Source of the DNA: an uncultured Dehalococcoidia bacterium | GTDB lineage: Bacteria; Chloroflexota; Dehalococcoidia; Bin125 | Length of the DNA: 64,000 bases | Direction: 5' to 3' | NCBI GenBank assembly: GCA_958295515.1 | Contig: CATQGW010000001.1 | Coordinates: 1,006,658 to 1,070,657, forward strand | Shown: positions 2,638-47,545 of the stretch, piece by piece | Position numbering within the stretch: position 1 is the stretch's first letter | Layout: each line of letters begins with the position of its first letter | Position numbers and translations under genes: made by a program | Notes under the pieces: generated by a model | The model's database searches: none | What the model was told of the DNA's origin: nothing | What the model saw: the letters and a program-made list of their open reading frames with translations, nothing else

Positions 2638-2705
2638 GGGTTGATCTTAGAGAGGGGGAGGGGTTGGTGGGTGGGGCGGGGGGCGCGGGGCTTGGGGGGC
2701 GGCAC

Positions 2706-2740
2706 GGCGAGATACCCGCGGCGGGGCGCGGGTATGACGG
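2706..2740. repeat. Palindromic hairpin element, type A: GGCGAGATACCCGCG-loop-CGCGGGTATGACGG.
   Basis: A 9-bp perfect stem ATACCCGCG/CGCGGGTAT with a 5-nt loop. The same element recurs more than 15 times in the window (3700-4510, 25240-25535, 44870-45560). Confidence 0.8.
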
Positions 2741-2776
2741 ATTCAGGGGCGCGGGTGTGGCGGATCCGGGGCTGGG

Positions 2777-3502: not shown

Positions 3503-3575
3503 GTTCTGTATTGGACGCTGGTGGGGTGGGTTTTGTCAAATTGGGTGGGGTGTTGGGGGTTGCATTGGGGGGTGG
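2830..3575. repeat. Left copy of a ~740-bp inverted duplication; the partner is at ~62135..62840.
   Basis: The reverse complement of 3503-3560 (...gcaacccccaacaccccacccaatttgacaaaacccaccccaccagcgtccaatacagaacATG) is near-identical to 62150-62219. The encoded proteins align over ~200 aa and diverge only at the extreme C-terminus. Confidence 0.75.
2990..3110. repeat. About 12 tandem copies of a 10-bp unit (TGTTCGATYS) inside a coding region.
   Basis: Direct reading gives tgttcgatcc tgttcggctg tgttcgattg tgttcgatcc tgttcgattg tgttcgactg and so on. The unit length is not a multiple of 3, so three units encode one 10-aa peptide repeat. Confidence 0.85.
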
Positions 3576-3589
3576 GGGGGTGGGGCGGG

Positions 3590-4560: not shown

Positions 4561-4569
4561 AGGGGTGGG

Positions 4570-5214: not shown

Positions 5215-5252
5215 GGGTGGCCTCTGCTGGGGGCGGCCTCTGCTGGGGGCGG

Positions 5253-20371: not shown

Positions 20372-21391
20372 ATGCGCGCTGTGGTGCTGCGAAACATGGA
20401 GCTGGTCGTTGATGACATCGCCCAACCGGAACCTGCGGAGGGCGAGGCGCTGGTGAAGAGCCTGGCCTGCGGCATCTGCGGCTCGGACCTGCACTTCGTC
20501 AAGTTCGGGCAGGAGATGGTGACGGCGTCTCAGTCGGAGGGGCGCTCGCGCTTTGCGCCCGATCTCGAGCGCGACATCGTGATGGGCCACGAGTTCTGCT
20601 GCGAAGTGGTGGCCTACGGACCGAACACGCCGGAGACGGTGCCGGTCGGGGAGCGCTGCGTCTCCGTGCCCAGCCGCGGCGCGTATTCCAACGAGTACCC
20701 GGGCGGCTACAGCGAGTACATGGTGCTCGACGCCTCAATGCTGCTGCCGGTGGCGGATTCGCTGGCGACGCACCACGCGGCGGTGACCGAGCCGATGGCG
20801 GTGGGTCTGCACGCGGTTCGGGCGGGCGCGTTCAGCGACGAGCCGGCGGTGATCTACGGCTGCGGTCCGGTCGGTCTGGCGACGATTGCGGCGCTCAAGA
20901 TCGATGGGGTGGGGCCGATCGTGGCGGCCGATTTTTCGCGGAAGCGCCGGGAGTTGGCGGGGATGATGGGGGCGGACAGCGTGGTGGATCCGCGCGAGTT
21001 GTCGCCGGTGACGGCGCTGGAGCGGCTGGGCTCGTTCTCGGAGACGGTGCTGTTCGACGCGGTCGGGGTGCCGGGGATGCTGTCGCTGCTGTCGCGCGAG
21101 GCGCCTGATCGGGGCGCGCGGATTGTGGTGGTGGGCGTCTGCATGCAGTCGGACACGATTCAGCCGATGGCGGCGATCGAGAAGGAGTTGAGCTACAAGT
21201 TCGTGCTCGGCTACACGCCCGAGGAGTTTGAGGAGAGCCTGCGTGCGCTGGAGAACGGGCTGATCGATGCTTCGCAGTTCGTCAGCGGCGCGGTTGGCCT
21301 CGATGATGTCGGGGCGGCCTTCGAGACGCTCGCCGACCCTGAGGAGCACTGCAAAATCATGGTCACGCCGCACGAGGAGCACTCGCTCTGA
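20372..21391 (+). CDS. Zn-dependent alcohol / threonine-type dehydrogenase (MDR family).
   Basis: An AAGGAG RBS lies 6 nt before the ATG at 20372. Motifs GICGSDLH and GHEFCCEVV are present. Confidence 0.8.
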   Translation: MRAVVLRNMELVVDDIAQPEPAEGEALVKSLACGICGSDLHFVKFGQEMVTASQSEGRSRFAPDLERDIVMGHEFCCEVVAYGPNTPETVPVGERCVSVPSRGAYSNEYPGGYSEYMVLDASMLLPVADSLATHHAAVTEPMAVGLHAVRAGAFSDEPAVIYGCGPVGLATIAALKIDGVGPIVAADFSRKRRELAGMMGADSVVDPRELSPVTALERLGSFSETVLFDAVGVPGMLSLLSREAPDRGARIVVVGVCMQSDTIQPMAAIEKELSYKFVLGYTPEEFEESLRALENGLIDASQFVSGAVGLDDVGAAFETLADPEEHCKIMVTPHEEHSL

Positions 21392-22648: not shown

Positions 22649-23895
22649 CAGATAATGCCTCTCTCGCGCAGCGCGGTGAGTTCGTCGGCGCTCAGCCCGA
22701 GTTCGCCCCAGACTTCGTCGTTGTGTTGACCGAGCCGCGGGGGTGGGCGGTCGTCCCAGCGCTGGGGCGCGCCGTCGATGCGAATTTGCAGCGGCGCGGC
22801 GGGCAGGCGCAGGCTGCGGCCGTCGTCGAGCGTGAATTCGCGCCAGAAACCGCGCGCGTCGAGCTGGCGGCTCTCGGCCAGGTCGGCGATGTTCAGGACC
22901 GGCACCAGGAGCAAGTCGTAGGCGATTGAGACGTCCAGCATTTCGCGCTTGGTTTTGCCGCGCACGTGCGCCTGCATGACCTCCTGGATGCGCGGCAGCA
23001 GATCGGGGTCGGCTGCGCCGGCCGCGAGACGGTCCGGATAGGTGACGAAGTTCTCCTCGGCCAGCTCGGCTTCGAGGACGCCCTCATCGATTAGCCAGCG
23101 GACGGCGTGGTTGACGAAGTGCCCGACGGCGGGGCCGGGCGCGAGCGCGAGGACGATCCAGCCGTCTTCGACTTCGCGGGTGCCGCGGAAGCCGACGCCG
23201 CGCGCTTTGACGCCGCCGGCGTAGCGCTCCGGCTCGACGGCGCCGAGCGAATGCGCGAGCACCTGTCCGAGCGTGGCCTGGGCGGCGGAGACCTGGGCGG
23301 AGATATCGACGTGCTGCCCGCGTCCGGTCGCGCGGCGCGCGTGCAGCGCCAGCATTGCGCCGCCCGCGGCGTCGCCGGCGGCGTGCGACCAGGACTGCGG
23401 GACGGAGATGCGCACGGGCGGTCGGTCGTCGTCGCCGCTCATCAGCAGCGGCGTGCCGGCCGCCCAGATGACCAGGTCGGTGGCCTGGTAGCGGGCTTTG
23501 GGGCCGGTTTGGCCGAAGGCGGTGATCGAGGTGTAGATCAGCTGCGGGAAGTCGTCTTTGAGCTGCTGGTAGCCGAGGCCGAGCGCGGCCATCGCGCCGG
23601 GGTCGGCGGATTCGAGCAGGATGTCGGCGCTGTCCAGTAGGCGGCGCAGCAGGGTGCGCCCGTCGGAGTGCTCGATGTCGCAGGTGATGCCGCGCTTGTT
23701 GCGGGTGTAGGCGGTCCAGAAGATGGAGCGCTCGGTTTCGGGCGCGTCGCCGCCGAAGAAGGGCGCGACGCGGCGTCCGCGCGAGCCTGCGGGCGGCTCG
23801 ACCTGGATGACGTCTGCGCCGAGGTCGGCCAGCATCTGTCCGGCGAGCACGCCGCGTTGGTCGGTGAGGTCGAGGACGCGCAGATGGTTGAGCAC
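22648..23895 (-). CDS. CoA-transferase family III (CaiB/BaiF-like).
   Basis: Starts MLNHLRVLDLTDQRGVLAGQMLADLGADVIQVEPP. Confidence 0.8.
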   Translation of the reverse strand: MLNHLRVLDLTDQRGVLAGQMLADLGADVIQVEPPAGSRGRRVAPFFGGDAPETERSIFWTAYTRNKRGITCDIEHSDGRTLLRRLLDSADILLESADPGAMAALGLGYQQLKDDFPQLIYTSITAFGQTGPKARYQATDLVIWAAGTPLLMSGDDDRPPVRISVPQSWSHAAGDAAGGAMLALHARRATGRGQHVDISAQVSAAQATLGQVLAHSLGAVEPERYAGGVKARGVGFRGTREVEDGWIVLALAPGPAVGHFVNHAVRWLIDEGVLEAELAEENFVTYPDRLAAGAADPDLLPRIQEVMQAHVRGKTKREMLDVSIAYDLLLVPVLNIADLAESRQLDARGFWREFTLDDGRSLRLPAAPLQIRIDGAPQRWDDRPPPRLGQHNDEVWGELGLSADELTALRERGII

Positions 23896-23958
23896 GGGGG
23901 CAGGCTAGCGGTGCGGCGCGCTTCGGCGTTAGCGGGTGGGCGGCGTATCGTGGCATCT

Positions 23959-25188
23959 ATGCCACTGGAAGTCGGACACGACGGCAATCGGGTGATGCTG
24001 CGGGGGGCGCTGCGCCGCTTTGATGAGCTGCGGGTGGTCAGCGCGGCGCTGTTCGACGCGATCGGGCGGCGCGGGCAGCGCGCGGTGACGCTCGATTTCT
24101 CGGCGTGCGAGGAGTTCTCGCCGGCGACGATGTTGCCGCTGCTGCCGGTCGCGGCGGGGTACCGCGAGGTCTCGGGCGCGACGTTCGAGCTGGTGGCGCC
24201 GGAAGACGAGGGGTTGAAGCGGCTGCTGATCGACTCGAATTGGGCGCACTTCATCGATCCTGAGCGGTATGCGATCAATGAGGAGGCCGGTGGGCAGGTT
24301 CCGGCGCAGCGGTTTGGGGCGGAGACGGAGGTGGGAGCGATCGTGGCGGGCGTGATGGAGCTGCTGCTGCCGAGGATGGACGTTGAGCGCGAGGCGCTCG
24401 CGGCGCTGGAATGGTCGATGTATGAGTTGATGGACAATGTGCTCTGCCACGCGGAGTCGCCGACGGGCGGGTTTGCGCAGGCGAGCGTTGATGCGCAGTC
24501 GGGGTGGGTGGAATTCGTTGTGGCGGACGGCGGGATCGGCGTCGCGGAGAGTATGCGCATTCGCGATCACGAGCAGGCGCTGGGGCGGGCGATCGCTGAG
24601 GGCGGGACGCGGGACCGAGCGGCGCACGCGGGCGATGGGCTGTTTGGGGCGTTCCGCGCGGCGACGCTGTCGGGCGGTCAGTTTGAGATCAACTCCGGGT
24701 TCGGGCTGCTCTATGGATCGCGCGAGGGTCCTGAGGAGTACCGGACCGGCAAGCGGCGGATTCGCTATAGCGGCACGGCGGTGCGCTGCGAGGTGGGCGT
24801 CGGCGATGCGGGATTGCTGGGGCGCGCGCTGGCGTTCTGCGATCGGGCGTATGAGCCGTTGGACGAGTCTGCTCAGCGAGGGAGCGGGGCGGGGGAGGTC
24901 GCTCCGTTCTCGATTCGGGAGGAGGCGGCGCAGGATGTCGGCTCGAGATCGGGCGGGCGGCGGGTGCGGGAGCTGGTGGAGGAGCGTTTGCGCCGGGATG
25001 GTGAGGCGGTACTGGACTTTGGCGGTGTTGCGGTGATTTCGAGCGGCTTCGCGGATGAGGTGTTGGGGCGGTTGTTTGCGGGGATGGGTCCGCGCGCGTT
25101 TATGAGTCGGGTTCGGGTGCGTAATGCGAATGTTGTGATCGAGGCTCTGATCGACCGCGCGATCCTACAGCGCACGCGCGCCGGGTAG
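23959..25188 (+). CDS. GHKL-ATPase (HATPase_c)-like protein with a C-terminal STAS-like domain; a putative anti-sigma-type serine kinase or regulator.
   Basis: The central segment EWSMYELMDNVLCHA...GWVEFVVADGGIGV fits the HATPase_c N- and G1-boxes. The C-terminus DFGGVAVISSGFADEVLGRLF is STAS-like. Track ORF 23668 starts upstream in a junk prefix; I chose the ATG at 23959. Confidence 0.4.
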   Translation: MPLEVGHDGNRVMLRGALRRFDELRVVSAALFDAIGRRGQRAVTLDFSACEEFSPATMLPLLPVAAGYREVSGATFELVAPEDEGLKRLLIDSNWAHFIDPERYAINEEAGGQVPAQRFGAETEVGAIVAGVMELLLPRMDVEREALAALEWSMYELMDNVLCHAESPTGGFAQASVDAQSGWVEFVVADGGIGVAESMRIRDHEQALGRAIAEGGTRDRAAHAGDGLFGAFRAATLSGGQFEINSGFGLLYGSREGPEEYRTGKRRIRYSGTAVRCEVGVGDAGLLGRALAFCDRAYEPLDESAQRGSGAGEVAPFSIREEAAQDVGSRSGGRRVRELVEERLRRDGEAVLDFGGVAVISSGFADEVLGRLFAGMGPRAFMSRVRVRNANVVIEALIDRAILQRTRAG

Positions 25189-25199
25189 CGGCGGGATCG

Positions 25200-25545
25200 T
25201 TTCAGCGCTGAGTTTGTCACGGCTGTTGGTGCTGGTCACGGCGAGATACCCGCGGCAAGCGCGGGTATGACGGTGGTGGGGGCGCGGGTATGACGGTGGG
25301 TTCGACACGGATGTTGGCGCTGGTCAGGGCGAGATACCCGCGGCAAGCGCGGGTATGACGGTGGTTGGGGCACGGGTGTGGCGGTGGGTTCGACACGGAT
25401 GTTGGCGCTGGTCAGGGCGAGATACCCGCGGCAAGCGCGGGTATGACGGTGGTAGGGGTGCGGGCGTGGTGGTGGGTTCGACACGGATGTTGGTGCTGGT
25501 CAGGGCGAGATACCCGCGGCAAGCGCGGGTATGACGGTGGTGGGG
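25200..25545. repeat. Four tandem copies of a ~90-bp unit containing the type A hairpin.
   Basis: The unit ttcgacacggatgttggcgctggtcagggcgagatacccgcggcaagcgcgggtatgacggtgg... repeats at 25240, 25330, 25420 and 25505. Confidence 0.85.
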
Positions 25546-26210
25546 GCGCGAGTGCGGAGCGGAGCGCTGCTTCGACGTCGGATTCTTCGAGATCGAAGTC
25601 GGAGGCGATGAAGGCGATCGATTCGTCGGCGCGCCAGCGCTTGACGATGGTTTCGAGCAGGAGGGCCGCGGTTGAGGAAGGTGACCGCGCCGCCGGCGAA
25701 GCGCGGATCGATCATCAGCGGCGCGCTGTCGCCGGCTGGGAAGAGGCGCCGCGCCCATGTGCCCGCTGCGGCATTCTGAGCGCAATCGTCGTACTCGATC
25801 GCGCGTGTCGCGAGCTCGGCGAACTTGGGCAGGGGCGGCAGTGATGTCGGCCATTCGTCATCGTGGCCAGGGCTGCTCGCGTTGGAGTCGCCGCAGCCCA
25901 GCGTGTTCAATCTGAGTTCGGCGAAGGGATGCTCAACTCCCCAGCGCTCGCGGGCGAACTCGCGGCTTTGGCGAAGCTGCTCGACGCTGAGTCCGCAGGC
26001 GCGGAGGCGGCGCGCGACGATCAGCTCGACGAGTTCGAGGAACGAGAGGTGGAACGTTGCCTGGTCCGGGCGGCGATCGGCGAATAGCGGCGGCGCGGCG
26101 CGGTGGCCGCGAAACCAGCGGACGACGGTGGCGGTCGTCGTCTCTGCGAGGCGGGCGGCTTCGGCTGTCGTGTACAGCGATGTCGTGCGGGCGTCGTTGG
26201 GCGATCTCAT
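25500..26210 (-). pseudogene. MerR/excisionase-type HTH fused to DUF433, interrupted by a -1 frameshift near 25665.
   Basis: Frame 1 gives MRSPNDARTTSLYTTAEAARLAETTTATVVRWF...IDPRFAGGAVTFLNRG and then nonsense. A second frame continues LLETIVKRWRADESIAFIASDFDLEESDVEAALRS, which is the DUF433 C-terminal signature. Both frames terminate inside the 90-bp repeat array. Confidence 0.5.
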
Positions 26211-26243: not shown

Positions 26244-27071
26244 TCAGCTCGATGCGGAGCGTTGGGGGCGGCCGGGGCCGGGGGGGCCGGCGAAGGCTTG
26301 GGCTCGTTGGAGGAATTCTTCGGCGGCGGGGCCTTGCCACTGGAGGGCGGTGTCGCGGTAGTGGATGCGCTGGGTGGCGACGCGGCAGAAGTCGCCGGCG
26401 GCGCCGTGGATGCGGTTGGGTGCGTCTTCGGGGCCGCGCGCCCAGGCTGCGCCGGAGGGGAGGGTGAGTTCGAGGCGCAGCGGTTCGGAGTTGGGCTCGA
26501 GGCCGCGGGTTTGGTAGGCGAAGGCGCGGGTGATGTAGCCGAGGTGGGCGATGTGCTCGAGGCGGTCGCTGTCGACGGGGGCGATCTGCGCGCCGTCGAG
26601 CGCGTCGAGGCCGTGGCTCCAGCATTCCATGAGGCGGGCGGTGGCGAAGGAGCGGGCGCTCATGGGCGGGCCGGCCCAGGGCAGGCGGTGTTTGGCGTCG
26701 AGCGGGCGGAGGGCGGCTTCGAGTCGGCCGCGGGCGGCGCGCCACCAGTCGACGAGCTGGAGGCGGTTCATATGGCGCGCTTGGTCCTGGGCGTGGGAGC
26801 GCAGGCCGTCGGCGGAGCGCCCGCCGCTGTCGGGGTAGCGCGGCGCGCCGGAGGCGACGATGGCGGCGTGGTCGTCGACTTCGGCGAGGTGGGCGATCAC
26901 GTCGCGGACGAGCCAGCCGTCGCAGGGGGTGGGTCGCTGCCAGAGGGCGTCGTCGGTCTGGGCGAGGGCGTCGTCGAGGTAGCGCTGCTCGGCGGTGAGG
27001 TCGTCGAGGAGGGTTTGCCAGGGGTCGGGCATCTCTGCGCGTCTCTTTCCTGCTGTGTTGGCGCGGCTCAC
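26244..27071 (-). CDS. DinB/MDMPI_N-family protein (mycothiol-type maleylpyruvate-isomerase N-terminal domain).
   Basis: 275 aa with the motif PTPCDGWLVRDVIAHL. Confidence 0.6.
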   Translation of the reverse strand: MSRANTAGKRRAEMPDPWQTLLDDLTAEQRYLDDALAQTDDALWQRPTPCDGWLVRDVIAHLAEVDDHAAIVASGAPRYPDSGGRSADGLRSHAQDQARHMNRLQLVDWWRAARGRLEAALRPLDAKHRLPWAGPPMSARSFATARLMECWSHGLDALDGAQIAPVDSDRLEHIAHLGYITRAFAYQTRGLEPNSEPLRLELTLPSGAAWARGPEDAPNRIHGAAGDFCRVATQRIHYRDTALQWQGPAAEEFLQRAQAFAGPPGPGRPQRSASS

Positions 27072-27190
27072 GGCATTGGGCGGTCAGGTCGCTTCGCCCG
27101 GCGCAGCTGCCGCTGTTGCTTCGGCCCCGATCGGGCCTTGGCCAGCGACGGGCCGCTGTGTAGGGTACGCGGCCCGCGAAGGAGAGTTTC

Positions 27191-27998
27191 GTGAGTTCAT
27201 CCGTTCGTTTTACCCCCCCCCCCACAGGGACGTGCCGCCGCCAACAGCGCACGGTCTCCGCTGCGGTATCCGGGCGGGAAGTCGCGGGCGGTCAAGCACA
27301 TTCGCCCGCACATCCCCGCGAATGTCGGGCAGCTCTGTGCGCCGTTCCTGGGCGGCGCGAGCGTTGAGCTTGCGTGCGCCGCTGAGGGGATCGTCGTTCA
27401 CGGCTCCGACGCATTCGAGCCGCTGGTCAACTTCTGGCGCTTCGCGCTGACCGATGCCGGTCGCCTCGTTGAGCGAGTGCGGGATCATCACCCGTTGTTG
27501 AAGAGCGGGTTCTACAACCTACAGCGGAGTTACCATAACTTGACTGACCCGCTCGAACGGGCGGCGGTCTTCTTCGCGCTCAATCGATCTTCGTTTTCCG
27601 GGACGACGCTGTCAGGCGGTATGTCGCCGGGGCATCCGAGGTTCACGCCCGCGGCGATCACGCGCCTGGAGCAGTTTGCGAACGACGGTTTGTGCGTCGA
27701 GCACCTCGACTATCGAGAGGCGCTGACTCGCCATCCGAACGAATTTCTGTACCTGGATCCTCCTTACGCGAACGGGCAGCGCTTGTATGGCGACAGAGGC
27801 GACATGCACGGGAGCGTTGATCACCGCGAGCTGGCGGCGATGTTGTACCGACGCAGCGGATGGGTGCTGAGCTACAACGACTGCGCCGAGATACGCGAGC
27901 TGTATCGCGGCTACCGCATCATCGAACCGGGCTGGGCGTACGGCATGTCGGGGGAAGGCCGCCTGCGCTCGCGGGAATTGCTGATCATCGATGCCTAG
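27191..27998 (+). pseudogene. Dam-class (alpha, D12) N6-adenine DNA methyltransferase, out of frame at an 11-C homopolymer. It is a phase-OFF or frameshifted allele.
   Basis: GAAGGAGAG lies 6 nt before the GTG at 27191. The GTG frame runs through the C tract and stops at ~27360. A different frame encodes SPLRYPGGKSRAVKHIRPHIPANVGQLCAPFLGGASVEL (Dam motifs X and I) through to FLYLDPPYA (motif IV) and the stop at 27998. That frame has no start codon after its in-frame TGA at 27192 until the internal GTG at 27477. Removing one C joins the GTG frame to the Dam frame and gives a ~269-aa product. Confidence 0.7.
27213..27223. repeat. Homopolymeric C11 tract. On the minus strand it reads G11-TAAAAC.
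   Basis: Direct count across ...cgttttaCCCCCCCCCCCacaggg... Confidence 0.9.
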
Positions 27999-28854
27999 TC
28001 AAGCAGAGAGCGGCAAGGCGTGGGAATATGGACTTGCCCGCCGTCTGGGGCGGATGAACGGAGTGTCCATCCTCTCGAGCAATGCGCCGCTGGCAGCGCT
28101 CAAGGCGTATCATCAGTACGGCGAGCAGGCTCGAGCTGAGATCGAACGCGCTGCGGTTGCTGCCGCGAACTTCCTCGAAGCCCACGACGATCGTTTCGGG
28201 GAACTGGCGAACCTTGAGCTCCAGAGTGATCAGCGCGGTAGAGACGGCGATGTGCGCGACATTCTGGCGGCGACGCAAAGCGGCGACGTGATTGGCATTT
28301 CGGCGAAGCATCGACATCGAGCGCTCAAGCACTCGCGGCTGTCGGACAGCATCGACTTCGGCCTCGAGTGGTACGGCCGGCCTTGCTCGGCAACCTATTG
28401 GGCGCGCGTCAAGCCGGTGTTCGGCAGTCTTCGGCGTGTCAACGTCGGATACTGGCGTGAGTTGCCCGACAAGCATGACGGATATTACCGGCCGGTGTTG
28501 ACAGCGTTCATGGACGAGGTGCGGACCAATGCCGATGCGGCGCGGCTGCTGCGCTACGTCGTCGGGCGCTACGATTTCTACAAGGTGATCAAGTCGAACG
28601 GCGACATCGAGATTCAGTCGTTCAACCTCAGCGGCAGCCTGCAGTGGGGAGCCAAGTTGCCGATGCCGACTCGGATCGTTGAATTTCGACGGGAAACGGA
28701 TCGAGTCGGGACCGCTGAGCTGACGCTTGATCAAGGATGGCAGTTGTCGTTTCGCCTGCACAACGCCAATGCTGCGATCGAGCCGTCGCTCAAGTTCGAT
28801 ATCCAGTTGGTCGGGAGTCCGGAGGAGATGGGCAACTACACCACCGCCTATTGA
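27991..28854 (+). CDS. Putative type II restriction endonuclease partner of the Dam-class MTase, family unknown.
   Basis: 287-aa ORF whose ATG lies inside the MTase stop (ATGCCTAG). Coding-like composition and ~60% GC. A possible variant nuclease motif is GDVRD...GDVIGISAKH. The role is inferred from position only. Confidence 0.4.
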   Translation: MPSQAESGKAWEYGLARRLGRMNGVSILSSNAPLAALKAYHQYGEQARAEIERAAVAAANFLEAHDDRFGELANLELQSDQRGRDGDVRDILAATQSGDVIGISAKHRHRALKHSRLSDSIDFGLEWYGRPCSATYWARVKPVFGSLRRVNVGYWRELPDKHDGYYRPVLTAFMDEVRTNADAARLLRYVVGRYDFYKVIKSNGDIEIQSFNLSGSLQWGAKLPMPTRIVEFRRETDRVGTAELTLDQGWQLSFRLHNANAAIEPSLKFDIQLVGSPEEMGNYTTAY

Positions 28855-29033
28855 TGGTTGTCACCGGTTGGCGCGTACGCCGCGTTGAAGACTGCGGACG
28901 GCTTCGACGATTGCGCCGTGTGCTCGTACTCGCGCATGGCTGCTCCTCCCGCGTTGCGAGGGGAACGTATCGGGCCGGGGCGTGGGCGGCGAGCGTGGGC
29001 GTGGGCCCGCGGTGGGCCCTGTGGACCGGGGTT

Positions 29034-30119
29034 TTAGATGGGGGCGAGTTCGTCCATGAGCCAGGTGAGGCGCTCTTCGCTGAGTTTGGGGGCGGGCTTG
29101 GCGGCTTTTTCGGCGCTGCCGGGGTAGGCGAAGTTGCCCTGGCGGTCGCGGTCGGAGCTGCGCACGTACTGGCCGAGCCCGATCCGCCCGGCGTAGTCGA
29201 GGTGCTCGCGGGCGTACTTGGGCAGGTCGTCCCAGGTGACGGCGTGCGCCATTTCGGCGGCGACCTCGAAGTTGACCGCGTCGATCATCTTGTCCCACTC
29301 GCCGCGCAGCGAGAGTTCGTGCAGCTGCATGCCGAGCGAGTCGAAGCCGTGCGCTTCGAAGATGCGGTGGTAGGTGCGGGTGGAGCCGTAGAAGGAGATC
29401 GGCTGGCGCAGGCCCTCGATGGCTTGCTCGACTTCGGCTTCGGTCTCGCCGAAGGCCATGAAGCCGCCGACGGAGACTTCGATGTCTTCGACGTTGCGGC
29501 CGGCGCGGTCGGCGCCCTTTTTGACGTTGGGCAGGACGGATTCGAGCATCATTTTGTGGGTCATGAAGCCGTGCGGGCGGAGTCCGTCGGCGCAGGCGCC
29601 GGCGACCTGCGCCATCAGCGGGCCGACGTTGGCGAGGGAGATTTTGGGCGGCGCGTACTCGATCGGGCCGGGGTCGAACATGGGGGTCATGAGCGTGTAG
29701 GTGTAGTTGTCGGAGATGTATTCGGGGCGCTGGCCGGTCTGCCAGGAGTGCCAGACGGCGCGCATCATGCCGATGTAGTCCTCCATGCGGCGGGCGGGCG
29801 GCGTCCAGGTGCCGCCGAAGCGGCGGACGTTGTGGCCTTTGACCTGGCTGCCGAGTCCGATGTTGATGCGGCCGCCGGAGAGCTGCTGGAGGTCCCACAT
29901 GGCCTGGGCGAGGATCATCGGCGAGCGGGGGAAGGCGATGGTGACCGAGGAGCAGATTTCGACGCGCTCGGAGTGTTCGGCGGCGAGCGCCAGGGCGAGG
30001 GTGGAGTCGTGCTTGGTTTCGGGGGTGACGACGGCGTCGAAGCCGCGTTGTTCGGCGAGGCGCACCTGTTCGGGGATGCCGCCGAGCCAGCCGCCGCCGA
30101 AGCCGGTTTCGATTTTCAT
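29034..30119 (-). CDS. LLM-class F420/flavin-dependent oxidoreductase (luciferase-like).
   Basis: Starts MKIETGFGGGWLGGIPEQVRLAEQRGFDAVVTPE. I chose the second ATG because an AAAGGA RBS precedes it. Confidence 0.7.
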   Translation of the reverse strand: MKIETGFGGGWLGGIPEQVRLAEQRGFDAVVTPETKHDSTLALALAAEHSERVEICSSVTIAFPRSPMILAQAMWDLQQLSGGRINIGLGSQVKGHNVRRFGGTWTPPARRMEDYIGMMRAVWHSWQTGQRPEYISDNYTYTLMTPMFDPGPIEYAPPKISLANVGPLMAQVAGACADGLRPHGFMTHKMMLESVLPNVKKGADRAGRNVEDIEVSVGGFMAFGETEAEVEQAIEGLRQPISFYGSTRTYHRIFEAHGFDSLGMQLHELSLRGEWDKMIDAVNFEVAAEMAHAVTWDDLPKYAREHLDYAGRIGLGQYVRSSDRDRQGNFAYPGSAEKAAKPAPKLSEERLTWLMDELAPI

Positions 30120-31787: not shown

Positions 31788-32369
31788 TTGGCAGGGCGCG
31801 GCGGTGCGGGTATAACCCTGGGCGTGGATACGAAGAGCGGGCGACGCCGCGCAGACGGCAACGCGGACGAGATCGCGGCGCTGCTCGGCGACGAGCGGGC
31901 GGTGTCGCGCGAGGCGGGCGCGCGTCGGGCGGCGCGCGACGGCTCGGCGCGGCACCTGCGAACGCTCAACGAGCTGGCGCTCGGCGATCCGTCGCAGCGG
32001 GTGCGGCGCGAGGCGGCGGCCTCGATTGGCCGCATCGCGGCCGAGCTGCCGGAGGCGTTTGCGATGCTGGCGGGGCTGGCCGAGCACACGGATCCGGGGG
32101 TGGTGCTGCAGGCCGCGCGTGGGCTGATGCGCAGCGGTCGGGGCTGCACACAGCGGGCGATCGCCGAACCGCTGCTGGATCGCCTCGCGGCGCATCCCAA
32201 CGAGGTCGTGCGCGACTTCGTGGCGGTCGAGCGGGGGCGCGCAGCCCGCGGTCATAACGCGCGTGCGGGGGGGGGGGGGGGTAAAAGCGCACCGCGACGC
32301 GCCGGCCTGGCTGGAGAATCGACTGGTGCAGGGCGACGCGCTCGAGCTGCTGCGGCGCTTGCCCGATGA
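31788..32369 (+). CDS. HEAT / PBS-lyase repeat protein. The C-terminal tail beyond the G tract is probably not native.
   Basis: TTG start. Repeats present: DPSQRVRREAAASIGRI, DPGVVLQAARGL and HPNEVVRDFVA. The reading frame passes through the G15 tract, encoding GGGGG. Confidence 0.45.
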   Translation: MAGRGGAGITLGVDTKSGRRRADGNADEIAALLGDERAVSREAGARRAARDGSARHLRTLNELALGDPSQRVRREAAASIGRIAAELPEAFAMLAGLAEHTDPGVVLQAARGLMRSGRGCTQRAIAEPLLDRLAAHPNEVVRDFVAVERGRAARGHNARAGGGGGKSAPRRAGLAGESTGAGRRARAAAALAR

Positions 32370-33132
32370 CAGCATTCACCTGACGTTCACGTCGCCGCCC
32401 TACTACAACGCGCGTGATTACTCGGTCTACGAGTCCTACGAGGCTTACCTCGACTTTCTGGAATCGGTCTTCGCCGAGCTGCACCGCGTCACCAAAGAGG
32501 GGCGCTTTCTGGTGGTCAACACCTCGCCGGTGATCGTGCCGCGCGCGGGGCGGCAGCATGAGAGTCACCGCTTCGCGATTCCGTTCGACCTGCACCCGCG
32601 GCTGACGGCGCAGGGCTGGCGGTTCATCGACGACATCATCTGGCGCAAGCCGGACGGGGCGGCGAAGCCGCGCAATTCGGGCTTTGCGTCGCACCGCCAG
32701 CCGCTGACCTGGAAGGCGAATGCGGTGACGGAGTATGTGATGGTCTACCGCAAGCGGTCGGCGCGGCTGATCGACTGGAATCTGCGGCAGTACCCGGCGG
32801 ATGTGCGCGAGGCGAGCCGCGCGCCGGACGACTATGAAACGAGCAATGTGTGGGAGATTGATCCCGCCGTTGATCGGGTGCATAGCGCGGTGTTTCCTGC
32901 GGCGCTGTGCGAGCGGGTGATCGCGTATTACTCGATGGTGGGGGACCTGATTTTCGATCCGTTCGCGGGCAGCGGAACGGTGGGGGTGGCGGCGCTGAAG
33001 CTGGAGCGGCGGGCGCTGCTGGCGGAGATCGATGATCGGTATGTGCAGCGGATTCAGAACCGCGTCGGTATGCAAATGCGCGCCTGCACGATCGAACAGT
33101 TATTGGAGGGGCGCGATGCGTCTGAGTCCTGA
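32263..33132 (+). CDS. Beta-class DNA methyltransferase (motif IV SPPY before motif I), probably N4-cytosine specific.
   Basis: The motif order is NRLVQGDALELLRRLPDDSIHLTFTSPPYYN and then FDPFAGSGTVGVAA. The annotated start is the GTG 4 nt before the G tract. An alternative start is the GTG at ~32326, which has a GGAGA RBS. Confidence 0.75.
   Translation: MRGGGGVKAHRDAPAWLENRLVQGDALELLRRLPDDSIHLTFTSPPYYNARDYSVYESYEAYLDFLESVFAELHRVTKEGRFLVVNTSPVIVPRAGRQHESHRFAIPFDLHPRLTAQGWRFIDDIIWRKPDGAAKPRNSGFASHRQPLTWKANAVTEYVMVYRKRSARLIDWNLRQYPADVREASRAPDDYETSNVWEIDPAVDRVHSAVFPAALCERVIAYYSMVGDLIFDPFAGSGTVGVAALKLERRALLAEIDDRYVQRIQNRVGMQMRACTIEQLLEGRDASES
32267..32281. repeat. Homopolymeric G tract of ~15 nt, followed by TAAAAG.
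   Basis: Read directly. The tract length of 15 is the one consistent with both track ORF frames (HEAT ...ARAGGGGGK and MTase MRGGGGVK). Confidence 0.85.
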
Positions 33133-34030
33133 CGGCCTGCGGCACGCGATTCGCTGCCTGATCCGCGACGGCCAGAGCCATCGGCAGGCGATTTTCGAGG
33201 AGATCAACCGCGAATTCGTGCGCCATGCGGTTGAGTTTTTCACCGAGGTCGCGCACGCCAAGCTGAAGGGCGAAGACCTGGCGGCCTCCGAGGACTGGTA
33301 CGAACGGCAGCTGCTGCGCAGCGGCCGATACAGCAAGGAAGAGATCGCTGTTCACGCCGGCATTCCGATGAAAACGATCGAGAACATTCACGAGTCGACC
33401 AGCTCCAATGTGGTGCTCGACGCCAGCTTGCAGAATCATCAGGCGCTGCGGCGGACGATCGAAGAGGTTCTCGCCGCCGGGGAGGGTCCCTCGATCACGT
33501 TGACGATCAAGCTGCGCGGCGTTGGGGTGGATCTCAGCCTCGATGAGAGTCTGATCGTAATCAATTCATTGGCGGTCAAGCGCGAGCGGATTCGCGGCGG
33601 GATGTGGTCCACAGCGGGCAAGCAGGTTGAGGTGCCGCTGATGGCGACGCTCTGTCTGCTGCACGGTGTGGATGATCGCTTCTGGCGGATCGCCAAGCCT
33701 GACGAGTATCCGCATCAGATTGATTTCGTGTTGCAGAGCCACGGAAAGCAGTATCTCTGCGAAGTGAAGCTGATGGGCAAGGGGAACCCGGAAAGCGCCA
33801 AGGCTGCGCACGCGCACAATGCCAATCTGTTGGTCGCCGACCGCCTCTCGGAGCAGGCGAAGCAATCGTTGAGCAAGAACAATGTCGAGTGGGTAGAGCT
33901 GGCGGCAGCGTCGGGCTACCGGCGGTTCGGCGTTGTGCTGGACCGGTTCAACATTGAGCGAGGGGAAGCGGCTGATCTCGAGGGGTTGGATGAGATCATT
34001 GAGCGCGCCATTGAGCGCACGGCTCGCTGA
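33116..34030 (+). CDS. Putative type II restriction endonuclease of the PD-(D/E)XK class.
   Basis: Its ATG overlaps the MTase 3' end by 17 nt. The motif ...HQIDFVLQSHGKQYLCEVKLMG fits D-x13-E-x-K. Local GC is ~60%. Confidence 0.5.
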   Translation: MRLSPDGLRHAIRCLIRDGQSHRQAIFEEINREFVRHAVEFFTEVAHAKLKGEDLAASEDWYERQLLRSGRYSKEEIAVHAGIPMKTIENIHESTSSNVVLDASLQNHQALRRTIEEVLAAGEGPSITLTIKLRGVGVDLSLDESLIVINSLAVKRERIRGGMWSTAGKQVEVPLMATLCLLHGVDDRFWRIAKPDEYPHQIDFVLQSHGKQYLCEVKLMGKGNPESAKAAHAHNANLLVADRLSEQAKQSLSKNNVEWVELAAASGYRRFGVVLDRFNIERGEAADLEGLDEIIERAIERTAR

Positions 34031-34154
34031 GGCGGTGGTGGGATGTTCCGTCGTGCGGCTGTTGGGAGGGAGGCTTTGGCGGGGCTGTGGAGGTTGAATC
34101 CACAACATCCGCGCTTGTTTGCTTGTAGGGTATGCGGCGCACTTGGGAGAGGGA

Positions 34155-36206
34155 ATGCCGATGCCTATCGCAGCCGTGTTGAGCGCCAGGACCGTGGTCG
34201 GCGGCATTGCGCTCGCCGCGTTGCTGCTGTTGGTTGGCGTTGTTCTCGGTATCGCAGGCGGTTGGCAACAGGCGGAAGCTCAGGAGGAAGCCCGCGCGGT
34301 CGCGATCAGCGTCGGCGAATCGCACGCCTGCGCGCTGCTCGACTCGGGCGCGATCGAGTGCTGGGGCGACAACCGGTACGGTCAAACGGATGCGCCGAAC
34401 GGTCGCTTCAGCGCGGTCAGCGCGGGAGATCGGCATAGCTGCGGGCTGCGGGAGGGGGGCGAAGTCGAATGCTGGGGATGGAACGGGTTCGGCCAAACGG
34501 ATACACCGAGCGGCCGCTTTAGCGCGGTGAGCGCGGGTTTGTTCCACAGCTGTGGGCTGTGGAAGACGGGCGAAGTCGAGTGCTGGGGCGACAACCGGTA
34601 CGGTCAAACGGCTGCGCCGAGCGGTCGTTTCAGCGCCGTCAGCACGGGCAGCGCGCACAGCTGCGGGCTGCGGAAGACGGGTGCCGTCGAGTGCTGGGGA
34701 AGTAATGAGTACGGCCAAGCAGGTGCGCCGAGCGGTCGCTTCAGCGCGGTCAGCGCAGGCTGGGGGCACAGCTGCGGACTGCGGGAGACGGGTGCCGTCA
34801 AATGCTGGGGATACAACAGGTCTGGCGAAGCGGCTGCGCCGAGCGGTCGCTTCAGCGCGGTCAGCGCGGGCAGCTCGCGCAGTTGCGGGCTGCGGGAGAC
34901 GGGCGCGGTCGAGTGCTGGGGATGGAACGAGGACGACCAAACGGCTGCGTCGGGTGGTCGCTTCAGCGCGATCAGCGCAGGCTGGTCGCACATTTGCGGG
35001 CTGCGGGAGACGGGCGCGGTCGAGTGCTGGGAAGCCAACAATGCCGGCCAAGCGGCTGCGCCGAGCGGTCGCTTCGGCGCGGTCAGAGCGGGAAATTTGC
35101 ATAGCTGCGGGCTGCGGGAGACGGGCGCGGTGGAGTGCTGGGGAGCCAACAGTGCCGGCCAAACGGGTACACCGAGCGGCCGCTTCAGCGCGGTGAGTGC
35201 GGGCGGGTGGCACAGTTGCGGGCTGCGGGAGACGGGCGCGGTTGAGTGCTGGGGAGCCAACGCCTTCGGCCAAACGGCTGCGCCGAGCGGTCGTTTCAGC
35301 GCCGTCAGCACGGGCAGCGTGCACAGTTGCGGGCTGCGGGAGACGAGCGTGGTCGAGTGCTGGGGGTACAACGGGGGCGGCCGGACGGATGCGCCGAGCG
35401 GTCGCTTTAGCGCGGTCAGCGCAGGCGCTGCGCACAGCTGTGGACTGCGGGAGACGGGCGAGGTCGAGTGCTGGGGACGCAACTTGGACGGCCAAGCGGA
35501 TGCGCCGGGCGGTCGCTTCGGCGCGGTCAGCGCGGGCTGGCGTCACAGTTGCGGGCTGCAGGAGACCGGCGCGGTTGAGTGCTGGGGATATAACAGGTCC
35601 GGCCAAACGGATGCGCCGAGGGGTCGTTTCAGCGCGGTCAGCGCGGGCGAGTATCACAGCTGTGGGCTGCGGGAGACGGGCACGATCGAGTGCTGGGGGT
35701 ACACATTCGACGGACAGACGCAGCCGCCCACAGGGAAGCATCTTCAAATCAGCGCTGGTGCGAATCACGCCTGCGCGCTGAGCGAAGGCGGAACGGTCTC
35801 TTGCTGGACGATCTTCAACGGCGCTGCCGATGTGCCCGCCTGGTTGCGCGAGCCCAGCGTTGAGGCGGTGGGCGATTCTGCCAGCGGTCGGATTGTGGCG
35901 CGCAGGCTGGCCGATGGGCGCACTGAGTTTGCCTGGCTGCCTGCCGGGAGTGAGGAGCGCATCTTGCCGCGCTCGCGCTACTTCCCCACGGGCGCCGCCG
36001 TGGACCGCTGGCTGCGCTCCAGCCCGATCGAGGTTGACGGCGTTGAGATTGGGCGGATCAACGCGCGGCTGCTGGCGAATGGGCGGATTGAGTTGGCGTT
36101 TACGCCGACGGGCGGCGAGCGGATTCTGCCGCCGTCGCGCTACTTCCCGGTGAATGCCGGCGTGGACCGCTGGTTGCGGAGCACGGAGATCGATCCGGGC
36201 GGCTGA
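34155..36206 (+). CDS. Membrane-anchored RCC1-like repeat protein (~21 repeats of ~26 aa).
   Basis: N-terminal TM helix, then the consensus repeat GxVECWGxNxxGQTxAPSGRFSAVSAGxxHSCGLRET. The DNA is 78-bp tandem repeats. The many overlapping antisense ORFs in the track are artefacts. Confidence 0.7.
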   Translation: MPMPIAAVLSARTVVGGIALAALLLLVGVVLGIAGGWQQAEAQEEARAVAISVGESHACALLDSGAIECWGDNRYGQTDAPNGRFSAVSAGDRHSCGLREGGEVECWGWNGFGQTDTPSGRFSAVSAGLFHSCGLWKTGEVECWGDNRYGQTAAPSGRFSAVSTGSAHSCGLRKTGAVECWGSNEYGQAGAPSGRFSAVSAGWGHSCGLRETGAVKCWGYNRSGEAAAPSGRFSAVSAGSSRSCGLRETGAVECWGWNEDDQTAASGGRFSAISAGWSHICGLRETGAVECWEANNAGQAAAPSGRFGAVRAGNLHSCGLRETGAVECWGANSAGQTGTPSGRFSAVSAGGWHSCGLRETGAVECWGANAFGQTAAPSGRFSAVSTGSVHSCGLRETSVVECWGYNGGGRTDAPSGRFSAVSAGAAHSCGLRETGEVECWGRNLDGQADAPGGRFGAVSAGWRHSCGLQETGAVECWGYNRSGQTDAPRGRFSAVSAGEYHSCGLRETGTIECWGYTFDGQTQPPTGKHLQISAGANHACALSEGGTVSCWTIFNGAADVPAWLREPSVEAVGDSASGRIVARRLADGRTEFAWLPAGSEERILPRSRYFPTGAAVDRWLRSSPIEVDGVEIGRINARLLANGRIELAFTPTGGERILPPSRYFPVNAGVDRWLRSTEIDPGG

Positions 36207-44739: not shown

Positions 44740-45645
44740 CCCCCGTGATTCCCGCTCGGGGGCGGGAATGACGGAAAAGAGGAGTCGGAGGTTGAACGGC
44801 GAGATACCCGCGCTCCTCCGCCGTCATTGCCGCGCCCCGCCGCGGCAATCTCGCCGAGTTCAACACGGATGTTGGTGCAGGTCACGGCGAGATACCCGCG
44901 GCAAGCGCGGGTATGACGGAGTGTGTGTGGCGGGTGTGTGACGGAGCGGGCGGGTGTGTGACGGAATTGGTGGGCGGGAATGACGGAAAAGGGGAGTGGG
45001 AGGTTGAACGGGGAGATACCCGCGCTCCTCCTCCGTCATTGCCGCGTTCCGCCGCGGCAATCTCGCTGCGTTCAACACGGATGTTGGTGCAGGTCGCGGC
45101 GAGATACCCGCGGCAAGCGCGGGTATGACGGAGTGTGTGGCGGGTGTGTGACGGAGCGGGCGGGTGTGTGACGGAATTGGTGGGCGGGAATGACGGGAAG
45201 GGGGGGTCGGAGGTTGAACGGCGAGATACCCGCGCTCCTCCTCCGTCATTGCCGCGCCCCGCCGCGGCAATCTCGCTGCGTTCAACACGGATGTTGGTGC
45301 AGGTCACGGCGAGATACCCGCGGCAAGCGCGGGTATGACGGAGTGTGTGGCGGGTGTGTGACGGAGCGGGCGAGTGTGTGACGGAATTGGCGGGCGGGAA
45401 TGACGGAAAAGGGGGGTCGGAGGTTGAACGGCGAGATACCCGCGCTCCTCCTCCGTCATTGCCGCGTTCCGCCACGGCAATCTCGCTGCGTTCAACACGG
45501 ATGTTGGTGCAGGTCACGGCGAGATACCCGCGGCAAGCGCGGGTATGACGGAGTGTGTGGCGGGTGTGTGACGGAGCGGTCGGGTGTGTGACGGAATTGG
45601 TGGGCGGGAATGACGGAACTTGAGGTGGGCGGGGATGACGGAGGT
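44740..45645. repeat. Tandem array (4 copies of ~210 bp) of nested palindromes: type B, type C (ATTGCCGCG-N6-CGCGGCAAT) and type A.
   Basis: The unit ggttgaacggcgagatacccgcgctcctcc...gtcattgccgcg...cgcggcaatctcgc...gttcaacacggatgttggtgcaggtcacggcgagatacccgcggcaagcgcgggtatgacgg... repeats every 210 bp. The track ORFs here are offset by exactly 210. Confidence 0.9.
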
Positions 45646-45658
45646 GGCGAGCCGTGGG

Positions 45659-46591
45659 CTAGGCGGCGTCGGCGTGGACTACTGGTAGGACCTCTTCGAG
45701 GAGTTGCTGGGTTTGGCGCATGATGGCTTCGTCGCCCTGGACGGCGGGGCGCATGATGAATTTGCTGACGCCTACGGCGCGGTATTCGTCGATGCGCGCC
45801 TGGATTTCCTTTGCGCCGCCGACGACGAGGAACTGCTCGGGGCGCAGTTCGGGGAAGCGGCGGCGCAGGCCGTTCACCTGGGCCTGCACGTCGGGGTCGT
45901 CCCAGCTGCCGAAGTGGTAGCCCAGGCCGGCGCCGAAGTGGTCGGGCTCGTAGTCGGTGCGGCCGGCCTCGGCGAGGGCGGCGCGGATTTGCTGGATGAC
46001 GGGGCCGACCTCGTCGGCGCCTTGCACGCCGGCGACCCAGCCGGTGCCGATTTGGGCGGTGCGGCGGATCGCGGCCTTGCTCGCGCCGCCGATCCAGAGC
46101 GGCAGCGGCCGCTGCACGGGCTTGGGCTCCATTACGGCGTTGGTGTAGTGGAAGTGCTCGCCGTGGAAGGTGACCGACTCTTCGTTCCAGAGCCGCGACA
46201 TGAGCGTGAGCGCTTCATCGGCGATTGGCCCGCGGCCTTTGAGGGGGCGGTCGGTGACGCGCCATTCGGGGGCGATGGGTCCGCCGACGCCGAAGGCGGG
46301 GAGCAGGCGGCCGTTGCTGAGGAAGTCGATCGTCGCGCACTGCTTGGCGAGCACGAGCGGGTCGCGGAAGCCGACGACGACGACGTTCATGCCGAACTTG
46401 AGCTTCTCGGTGCCGGCGGCGAGGGCGGCCATGAAGGTCATCGATTCGAGCATCGGCTGCTCGGAGATCAGACGGTCGGTCTGCCAGATCGAGTCGACGC
46501 CGGCCTCCTCGCAGAGGTCGATCCAGCGCCAGAGCGTCTTGACGTCGGAAAACGGGAAGTTCGCAATGCCCATGCCGATGCGGTCGCTCAT
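45659..46591 (-). CDS. LLM-class F420-dependent oxidoreductase.
   Basis: A GGAGGAGG RBS precedes MSDRIGMGIANFPFS. Luciferase-like TIM-barrel signatures are present. Confidence 0.7.
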   Translation of the reverse strand: MSDRIGMGIANFPFSDVKTLWRWIDLCEEAGVDSIWQTDRLISEQPMLESMTFMAALAAGTEKLKFGMNVVVVGFRDPLVLAKQCATIDFLSNGRLLPAFGVGGPIAPEWRVTDRPLKGRGPIADEALTLMSRLWNEESVTFHGEHFHYTNAVMEPKPVQRPLPLWIGGASKAAIRRTAQIGTGWVAGVQGADEVGPVIQQIRAALAEAGRTDYEPDHFGAGLGYHFGSWDDPDVQAQVNGLRRRFPELRPEQFLVVGGAKEIQARIDEYRAVGVSKFIMRPAVQGDEAIMRQTQQLLEEVLPVVHADAA

Positions 46592-46668: not shown

Positions 46669-46686
46669 TGGGGGGGGGGGGGGGGG
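46669..46686. repeat. Homopolymeric G18 tract followed by TAAAAG, ~100 bp upstream of the yhhQ-like gene.
   Basis: Direct count across gaattGGGGGGGGGGGGGGGGGGtaaaagttgg. Confidence 0.9.
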
Positions 46687-46783
46687 TAAAAGTTGGATTG
46701 ACGGTTTGCCACAGGTCGCTATCGTGGGCGCCGTAGGTGGGGACGGAAGCGGAACTCGCGCGCTGGGGAGTGGGAGCGAGACG

Positions 46784-47545
46784 ATGCGATTTTCGGGCAA
46801 GCTGGTGATCATCGTCGCGCTGGCGGTGTCGGTGCTGCTGGTGTCCAACACGATTGCCGGCAAGCCGCTCTATCTGTTCGACCTGGGCTTCGATTTCCTC
46901 GGCGACAGCGCGGTGATCGTCTCGGTCTCGGTGATTTGCTTCCCGCTCGGCTACATCATCAGCGACGTGCTGACGGAGGTCTACGGCTTCCGAGTGGCTC
47001 GCGGGGTGATCTGGCTGGGCTTCGCCTGCAACCTGCTGATGGTCTTCCTCTACTGGGGCGCGCGGGCCATCCCCGGGCTTGAAGGCTGGGGTTTCGGGTC
47101 GTTCAACGAGGAGTCCTTCGACGCGATTCTGGGCACGACCGGCTGGCTGCTGCTGGGCAGCTTCGGGGCGTACGTGATCGGCGAGTTCGCCAACGCCTCA
47201 ATGATGTCTCTGCTCAAGAGCCGGATGGCGGGGCGGCACCTGTGGCTGCGCGCGATCGCCTCGACGATAGTCGGGCAGGGCATCGACTCCTGGATTTTCT
47301 ACCTGATCGCGTTCGGTCTCTCGGGGCTGTGGGGCTGGCAAGCGGCGGCGCAGGGCGCGGTCTTCGGCTGGATCGTGAAGACGCTCTTCGAGGTGGTGGC
47401 GCTGCCGGTCACCTACTGGGTGGTGGACTGGCTGAAGCGCACCGAGCACATGGACATCTACGACGCGCCGGCCTCGCTGAACCCGTTCGGGATTTTCGGC
47501 GACGAGGACAGCGAGAGCCGCAACGCCGCGGCGACCTCCGACTGA
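46784..47545 (+). CDS. Queuosine-precursor transporter family (YhhQ / DUF165, VUT) membrane protein.
   Basis: Multi-TM protein with the YhhQ-like motif ...PLGYIISDVLTEVYGF... Confidence 0.65.
   Translation: MRFSGKLVIIVALAVSVLLVSNTIAGKPLYLFDLGFDFLGDSAVIVSVSVICFPLGYIISDVLTEVYGFRVARGVIWLGFACNLLMVFLYWGARAIPGLEGWGFGSFNEESFDAILGTTGWLLLGSFGAYVIGEFANASMMSLLKSRMAGRHLWLRAIASTIVGQGIDSWIFYLIAFGLSGLWGWQAAAQGAVFGWIVKTLFEVVALPVTYWVVDWLKRTEHMDIYDAPASLNPFGIFGDEDSESRNAAATSD

Follow-up and report, generated by a model that had tools for sequence, protein, structure and literature searches.

How can a cell keep the gene of a stand-alone restriction endonuclease directly behind a methylase gene that is out of frame, and not be cut? 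The question is raised by a 64,000-nucleotide (nt) stretch of DNA from an uncultured Dehalococcoidia bacterium (GCA_958295515.1, contig CATQGW010000001.1, positions 1,006,658 to 1,070,657), called the window below, in which a methylase gene and an endonuclease gene overlap on the plus strand. An earlier note on this DNA had offered three answers: endonuclease translation depends on methylase translation, so that the two switch together; the endonuclease is inactive; or the host is protected another way. Coupled switching is the best supported of the three, the endonuclease start having no Shine–Dalgarno (SD) sequence, the methylase start a strong one, and the overlap of the two genes being family-wide. 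We consider it rather probable that the pair is an orthodox Type II methylase–endonuclease operon that would be switched on and off as a unit by a poly-C tract at the 5' end of the methylase gene. Reinitiation coupling, polarity, the GGCC specificity with protection by N4-methylcytosine (m4C), and reversibility within a population are what we infer. The features on which the argument turns are as follows.

27033 to 28893, no strand assigned: variable restriction–modification (R-M) cassette, delimited by blastn of the related locus L092 against the window
27138 to 27166, plus strand: putative promoter-like element TTGGCC-N17-TAGGGT, read from the sequence (-35 at 27138–27143, -10 at 27161–27166)
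27178 to 27193, plus strand: SD GAAGGAG (27178–27184) and methylase start GTG (27191–27193), anti-SD duplex -9.9 kcal/mol
27191 to 27367, plus strand: OFF-phase product, a 58-codon open reading frame (ORF) from the GTG, ending at TGA (27365–27367) about 620 nt before the endonuclease start
27213 to 27223, plus strand: poly-C tract of 11 C, methylase codons 8–11, the proposed hypermutable switch
27261 to 27998, plus strand: methylase body (LRYPGGK ... FLGGAS ... DPPY ... IIDA, stop TAG), a D12/alpha-class amino-methyltransferase whose start is out of frame
27991 to 27998, plus strand: endonuclease ATG (27991–27993) overlapping the methylase stop TAG (27996–27998) within 8 nt, ATGCCTAG, the proposed termination–reinitiation junction
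27991 to 28854, plus strand: HaeIII-family Type II restriction endonuclease gene, 287 amino acids (aa), ATG start, Pfam PF09556
28249 to 28308, plus strand: putative catalytic segment G86-D87-V-R-D90 ... S104-A-K106, a D-Xn-SxK variant of PD-(D/E)XK proposed from conservation

The earlier note had described a 287-aa endonuclease-like ORF of a family it did not recognise, coding in appearance, starting inside the methylase stop and sharing a patch of lower GC content with the methylase gene. This description holds. The overlap is the 8 nt listed above, and the patch (about 27200–28900) has a GC content of 0.60–0.65 against 0.68–0.76 in the flanks and covers both genes. Profile search places the protein in the HaeIII family: the match to Pfam RE_HaeIII (PF09556) reaches 233.8 bits for a cutoff of 25 (E 3.2e-69), joins residues 8–277 to the entire profile (1–298 of 298), and is accompanied by thousands of homologues, so that the ORF is coding and not there by chance. 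NCBIfam holds no model for it. The protein extends a known family by one new member. An AlphaFold2 model built with 66 homologues (predicted local distance difference test 95.1, predicted template-modelling (TM) score 0.90) consists of N-terminal helices followed by two beta sheets, and its best Foldseek matches in the PDB are the restriction enzymes HinP1I (1ynm, 2fkc) and MspI (1sa3), although these are weak (E 0.01–0.03, TM score 0.31–0.39); structure prediction thus leaves the nuclease proposal standing. Searching PDB sequences with the protein or with the 66-sequence profile returned chance matches only.

MspI, HinP1I and HhaI are monomeric two-sheet cutters of 4-bp sites with motifs such as SD-X11-EAK (PMC7026639). 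The window endonuclease resembles these PD-(D/E)XK enzymes in its two beta sheets and in a D-Xn-(S/N/Q/E)-x-K motif, but has no sequence similarity to them. In the 66-homologue alignment D87, D90 and K106 never vary, S104, A105 and E12 hardly do, all 28 invariant columns map onto the window protein, and GDVRD...ISAKH falls on strands 2–3 of the first sheet of the model (strands at residues 91–95 and 100–107). HaeIII itself was placed in an 'unknown superfamily' in a 2008 classification (PMC2441816) and goes unmentioned in the text of a 2012 survey of PD-(D/E)XK enzymes. Membership of the PD-(D/E)XK superfamily is likely from the model, the structural matches being weak. As judged from its sequence, the ORF at 27991–28854 probably encodes a functional HaeIII-family Type IIP restriction endonuclease and is the second gene of a methylase-then-endonuclease operon.

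What the methylase protects is the next question, and here the earlier note, which had called it Dam, has to be amended. The protein matches Pfam MethyltransfD12 (PF02086, E 1.9e-25) and stays below the Dam cutoffs (78.3 bits for 114.85 with TIGR00571, 32 for 441 with NF008152, the Escherichia coli Dam equivalog); DPPY is found in 120 of its 120 closest homologues. We surveyed the partner methylases of endonuclease relatives at 80 loci, taking one genome per species. An adjacent methylase is present at all 80, so that the survey gave no homologue that stands without one; such a homologue is what the earlier note had named as speaking against its proposal. The partner is of D12 type, directly upstream on the same strand, at 46 loci, of D12 type on the opposite strand at 2, and of C5-cytosine type, as for HaeIII itself, at 32 (8 of 8 tested were confirmed by Pfam). 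Endonucleases at least 42% identical to that of the window are all D12-linked; the C5-linked relatives are 38–42% identical to it. At 56 positions, those of the catalytic segment among them, both clades keep one and the same residue in at least 90% of sequences, and only 4 positions are conserved but different (56 of 60 shared), which argues against a changed specificity.

A D12 'adenine' methylase unable to protect GGCC would then be a puzzle, which the literature on the CbeI system of Caldicellulosiruptor bescii resolves. CbeI is a HaeIII-like enzyme that cuts GG/CC. Its neighbour M.CbeI has FxGxG and DPPY motifs and carried the annotation of a D12 N6-adenine methylase, but in fact modifies GGCC as an N4-cytosine methylase of the alpha class, with 57% identity to DmtB of Anabaena; enzymes of several classes are known to methylate GGCC (PMC3425538). 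The N-terminus of M.CbeI, MLKNVLRY as read from the cloning primer, agrees with xLRYPGGK, the signature common to all the endonuclease-linked D12 methylases. A search of a representative library gave 1125 clusters of the family; none of the 10 low-GC cluster representatives that were looked up came from Caldicellulosiruptor, and none of the top 120 methylase homologues had the termini of M.CbeI. The window methylase is probably not Dam but an enzyme of the M.CbeI/DmtB kind. By analogy with CbeI, and given the conservation between clades, we regard GGCC as the quite likely recognition site and m4C as the protecting mark. Avoidance of short words, which we tried as a guide to the site, was not decisive: the observed/expected ratio is 0.69 for GGCC (the lowest z-score), 0.73 for CCGG and 0.91 for GATC, and GTAC and ACGT are depleted much as GGCC is. 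With 428 GGCC sites in the window, or one in about 150 bp, unprotected expression of the endonuclease would be lethal whichever 4-bp site applies.

The methylase reading frame is set by the poly-C tract. The earlier note was right that the methylase is OFF-phase at a homopolymer, since the start frame ends after 58 codons; as to length, the tract in the window has 11 C and not 10, while 10 C is indeed an in-frame length. Translated in silico, the gene encodes a methylase of 268–270 aa with 10, 13 or 16 C and a product of 58 aa with 11 C. The tract lies 22 nt after the methylase GTG, and all frames through it read proline. The LRYPGGK body is in the +1 frame and offers no ATG, GTG or TTG until 27477, already past the S-adenosylmethionine (AdoMet) motif. 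Three C or G runs in the window have lengths of 11, 15 and 17, with none of 8–10, for a first-order Markov expectation of 0.2, 0.002 and 0.0002 runs of at least 11, 15 and 17, respectively. Upstream, the SD and GTG are kept in all tract-bearing relatives. The promoter-like element is kept 5' of the SD in four of the related loci cited here by our handles (L001, L003, L005 and L008) as TTGGCC-N17-TATGGT or TATAGT, and its TATGGT hexamer alone in L007 and L013. A consensus scan of 26900–29200 found no promoter-like site, TTGGCC-N17-TAGGGT falling under its threshold, and terminator-like sites at chance level only.

At the other end of the methylase gene, all close relatives and L007 have the same junction, ATGCCTAG. 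An SD is missing from the endonuclease start in every close relative (-4.3 kcal/mol, for a window background of -4.8 +/- 3.1), and the duplex at the methylase start ranges from -9.6 to -13 kcal/mol across relatives. No in-frame internal start of the methylase has an SD better than -6.1 kcal/mol, and the consensus scan found no promoter-like site within the gene. We also considered an RNA structure masking the endonuclease start and rejected it, the fold of the window sequence having a z-score of 0.21 and an alignment of 10 lineages no covarying pair. The arrangement extends through the family: methylase stop and endonuclease start overlap at 31 of 45 D12-linked loci (by 8 nt in 13, 4 in 12, 1 in 4 and 14 in 2), and the gap between them is at most 5 nt at 41 of the 45. 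This overlap is the ancestral design of the cassette.

An endonuclease gene that lacks a ribosome-binding site of its own and whose ATG lies within the end of the methylase gene would be translated only through termination and reinitiation, and the following mechanism can be proposed. Ribosomes would load at the strong SD and GTG of the methylase and then cross the poly-C tract, whose length would change by slipped-strand events: 10, 13 or 16 C would join the methylase body in frame to its start codon, and the 11 C found here would not. With the tract in frame, ribosomes ending at the methylase stop would reinitiate and make the endonuclease, which would have no other source. With the tract out of frame, ribosomes would halt after 58 codons, about 620 nt upstream of the junction, too early to reinitiate, and the long untranslated stretch may add polarity. 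Endonuclease and methylase would be silenced together and the cell would remain uncut.

Relatives with near-identical endonucleases all carry the tract, within the gene order DUF4325, PIN_10, DUF433, DinB/MDMPI, methylase, endonuclease, luciferase-like. Three chromosome-level Dehalococcoidia metagenome-assembled genomes (MAGs), L013, L007 and L008, have the same flanking genes at 71–79% aa identity and carry heptamers at the same site. The alleles are the following.

L001 and L002: C14, out of frame
L003: C13, out of frame
L004: C16, in frame
L005 and L006: C14, out of frame
L087 and L088: C15, out of frame (L088 is 5'-truncated, its state being taken from the 99.9% identical L087)
L090: C15, out of frame
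L013, 3155 to 3224: (CGGATCG)x10, out of frame
L007, 3209 to 3229: (CGCGGGA)x3, out of frame
L008, about 3188 to 3259: single heptamer copy, no usable start, out of frame

Counting the window, seven lineages at 75–92% nt identity thus have tracts of 11, 13, 14, 14, 15, 15 and 16 C, one of the seven being in frame. A neutral homopolymer would have been lost over such distances; this one has been maintained. As expected of a simple-repeat contingency locus, the tract sets the frame and differs in length between conserved flanks: at 92% identity, L004 has C16 and is in frame, and L087 has C15 and is not. The heptamers sit between an SD-linked ATG and the LRYPGGK core, and each of the three loci is one unit away from being in frame. 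The start of the L013 reading frame (MGLPL...) is homologous to that of the intact, repeat-free L093 methylase (MGLPTCALQ...), which confirms it as the authentic methylase start. Elsewhere among the D12-linked loci the methylase gene is unbroken, with a single full-length alignment in 44 of 46. One in-frame allele among 10 is compatible with random phase (binomial P about 0.10), and the idea that the OFF state is favoured among natural alleles is only suggestive. The homologous loci L027 and L050 also have G/C tracts nearby, which show no association with R-M genes.

Both genes are under purifying selection. Across five lineages they have identical lengths, with no indels and no internal stops, and the ratio of nonsynonymous to synonymous substitution rates (dN/dS) is 0.10–0.15 for the endonuclease (dS 0.75–1.0) and 0.06–0.11 for the methylase body (dS 0.5–1.1). 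This excludes a dead endonuclease, the second answer of the earlier note, and makes a redundant methylase, with the cell protected by some other enzyme, unlikely.

Four other explanations have to be weighed against coupled switching. The tract could act as a dimmer and not as a switch, slippage of RNA polymerase or ribosomes on 11–16 C partly restoring the frame: a low level of methylase would protect the cell, the endonuclease-to-methylase ratio would be fixed and the tract would set the level. Slippage on homopolymers is established. If only ribosomes that finish the methylase start the endonuclease, such a leak would keep the ratio of the two constant, and every frame through the tract encodes proline. 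This explanation would account for the conservation of both genes despite the out-of-frame state of 6 of 7 tract alleles and 3 of 3 heptamer alleles, and it would remove the cost of re-methylating an unmethylated genome. However, the heptamers, where slippage of polymerase or ribosomes cannot restore the frame, are out of frame as well, so that true OFF states are evidently tolerated, and slippage on C/G runs in this organism is without direct evidence. We consider the dimmer unlikely.

An assembly artefact, in which the real tract would have 10 or 13 C, the methylase would be intact and the operon would be a constitutive R-M system with a proline-rich N-terminal leader, is quite unlikely. Homopolymers of 11–16 are error-prone in short-read and long-read assemblies alike, and a single base decides the frame. 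Nevertheless, ENA and Logan assemblies are concordant for L001/L002 and for L005/L006 (they may share reads), L087 and L088, from two separate samples, both give C15, and lengths of 11–16 cannot all be in frame with the same SD-linked start. Heptamers, which are easily sequenced, are out of frame at the same site in chromosome-level MAGs. A second tract of the window has 15 G where the 97.5%-identical L092, whose contig name suggests a long-read assembly, has 17, and the window holds no runs of 8–10 for its three of 11–17.

That the endonuclease is expressed independently, with the chromosome protected by a methylase of the same specificity encoded elsewhere and the adjacent methylase dispensable, is very doubtful. 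The 64 kb of the window are all of the genome that is visible, and the several classes of GGCC methylase mentioned above leave room for such an enzyme. But the methylase is under stronger purifying selection than the endonuclease, which is unexpected of a redundant gene, the window contains no second D12 or C5 methylase, and the endonuclease start lacks an SD, with no promoter-like site in the methylase gene. Finally, Type III systems offer examples of a phase-variable methylase whose partner nuclease is inactive, but a dead or decaying endonuclease beside a phase-variable orphan methylase acting as an epigenetic regulator is hardly credible for a gene that is full-length and free of indels in all 7 lineages, at dN/dS 0.10–0.15, and that has kept all family-invariant residues, including D87, D90 and K106.

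Several observations weigh against coupled switching itself. Coupling across an overlap would not be general in this genome, as the endonuclease of a second R-M operon (described below) has an SD of its own (-9.8 kcal/mol). The depletion of GGCC is modest (0.69) and close to that of CCGG (0.73), and the likeness to CbeI/M.CbeI is drawn from the published description and from a primer-derived N-terminus. Homopolymer lengths in assemblies can be off by one. Some 'OFF' alleles could be 'low', because the methylase body is in frame with another upstream start in L001, L005, L087 and L090; gene callers chose alternative upstream starts for the last three, and in L001 and L005 an ATG lies within the putative -10. 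This upstream ATG is unlikely to be the true methylase start, since it lies inside the conserved -10-like TATGGT, which reads TAGGGT in the window and TATAGT in L008, without an ATG. Last, switching should carry a cost of its own, whether the system comes on before the DNA is methylated or goes off while enzyme persists, and the model leaves that unexplained.

A broader proposal can be made tentatively, and we would put it slightly short of even: that a Dehalococcoidia-related clade keeps Type IIP operons under repeat control, with obligatory coupling as an interlock, and that these operons are selected for switchability, the type of repeat at one codon position turning over between lineages (poly-C, CGGATCG and CGCGGGA), most alleles being OFF and a second operon carrying a G tract.

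By analogy with characterized systems, the pair appears most like CbeI/M.CbeI, the only one of this architecture to have been characterized, where a HaeIII-like endonuclease adjoins a methylase of about 270–280 aa described as 'D12 class N6 adenine-specific' with FxGxG and DPPY (PMC3425538); the window has the same architecture, with FLGGAS, DPPY and the PF02086 match. The differences are that no simple-sequence repeat or phase variation has been reported for CbeI, and that its host is a low-GC thermophilic Firmicute whereas the host of the window is a relative of Dehalococcoidia MAGs and has 68% GC. HaeIII/M.HaeIII shares with the pair the PF09556 family and the methylase-then-endonuclease order on one strand, but its partner is a C5 methylase, in contrast with the alpha-class amino-methyltransferase found here.

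With regard to switching, the likeness is to phasevarions (Type III mod, Type I hsd and Type IIG), in which a repeat in the 5' coding region shifts the methylase frame and differs in length between close strains. Repeat-driven switching of methylase frames is known for Type III, Type I and Type IIG systems (PMC3936762, PMC5909438), and heptamer repeats occur in mod genes, for example CAGCGAC[26] (PMC5909438). The REBASE-wide repeat surveys that we found in the literature concern Type III and Type I only. Phasevarions differ in two respects. Their nuclease either depends on the methylase subunit or forms one polypeptide with it, which makes OFF safe, whereas a Type IIP endonuclease is independent and its safety in the OFF state must come from gene expression, that is, from the overlap and the missing SD. 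Their hosts are host-adapted pathogens, unlike the uncultured Dehalococcoidia-MAG relative studied here. The traits that would set this candidate repeat-controlled Type IIP pair apart, as its sequence suggests, are coupling-based safety, turnover of the repeat type at one site and mostly OFF alleles.

A second R-M operon (31788–34030) lies downstream in the window, with the following features.

31788 to 32369: HEAT_2 ORF
32263 to 33132: beta-class N4/N6 methylase
32267 to 32281: G15 tract
about 33116 to 34030: CfrBI-family endonuclease, with its own SD GGAGGGG (-9.8 kcal/mol)

In L092 the tract has 17 G and HEAT_2 and methylase form one 436-aa ORF, which the G15 of the window splits; both R-M operons within 64 kb therefore carry variable G/C tracts. 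The third long tract, 17 G at 46670–46686, is in a divergent intergenic region between a luciferase-like oxidoreductase gene (45662–46591, minus strand), whose own SD lies about 80 nt from the tract, and a Vut_1 transporter gene (46706–47545). TTTTA/TAAAA borders each of the three long tracts of the window. A family of repeats of about 90–210 bp, interspersed or in tandem, whose translations repeat ...HTRACRGYLA.TS.NIRVE..., is found at 25206–25566 and 44760–45617 of the window, and also in L092 at 1563–1678 and 20459–20855. A 695-aa RCC1-repeat ORF occupies a segment of about 2.1 kb (34119–36206) where L092 has only about 0.5 kb.

Two observations concern other members of the family. In L084 (3469–3476), from an Anaerolineaceae MAG, the D12 methylase is frameshifted at an A8 run, which could be a phase-variable site or a sequencing error. 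In L054, L060 and L081 (about 2185–3989 in each), from Bacteroidota, an insertion of about 850 bp interrupts the C5 methylase that precedes the HaeIII-family gene. The nearest named genomes to the window are Dehalococcoidia MAGs, and many family members come from MAGs with names that suggest marine invertebrate hosts (Poribacteria, Poriferihabitans, Porisulfidus).

The cassette boundaries come from L092, whose flanks are 97.5% identical to the window; blastn homology ends at 27032 and restarts at 28894. Between the DinB/MDMPI and luciferase-like genes (3592–5787), L092 carries a GmrSD (PF03235/PF07510) Type IV restriction gene and a 101-aa ORF, with no methylase–endonuclease cassette, and this slot looks like a hotspot of defence-gene replacement. 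Upstream neighbours in the window (23668–26210) are a DUF4325 (HATPase-associated) gene and a toxin–antitoxin-like PIN_10/DUF433 pair, the latter recognised by synteny with relatives; together with the two R-M systems they look like a defence island.

Most documented cases of phase-variable restriction–modification come from host-adapted pathogens and are Type I, Type III and Type IIG systems, whose nuclease is inert without the methylase subunit. A stand-alone Type IIP nuclease, probably specific for GGCC, makes a sharp case of how protection can be dropped without the cell being cut, and the arrangement of the genes suggests a simple answer: an endonuclease without a ribosome-binding site, its start codon buried in the end of the methylase gene. 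For annotation, the lesson is that a 'D12 adenine methylase' adjoining a HaeIII-family gene is not to be read as Dam. For the organisms, repeat-mediated contingency loci would extend to a high-GC, uncultured lineage related to Dehalococcoidia MAGs, in which strains 97.5% identical to each other fill one chromosomal slot either with this R-M cassette or with a GmrSD Type IV enzyme.

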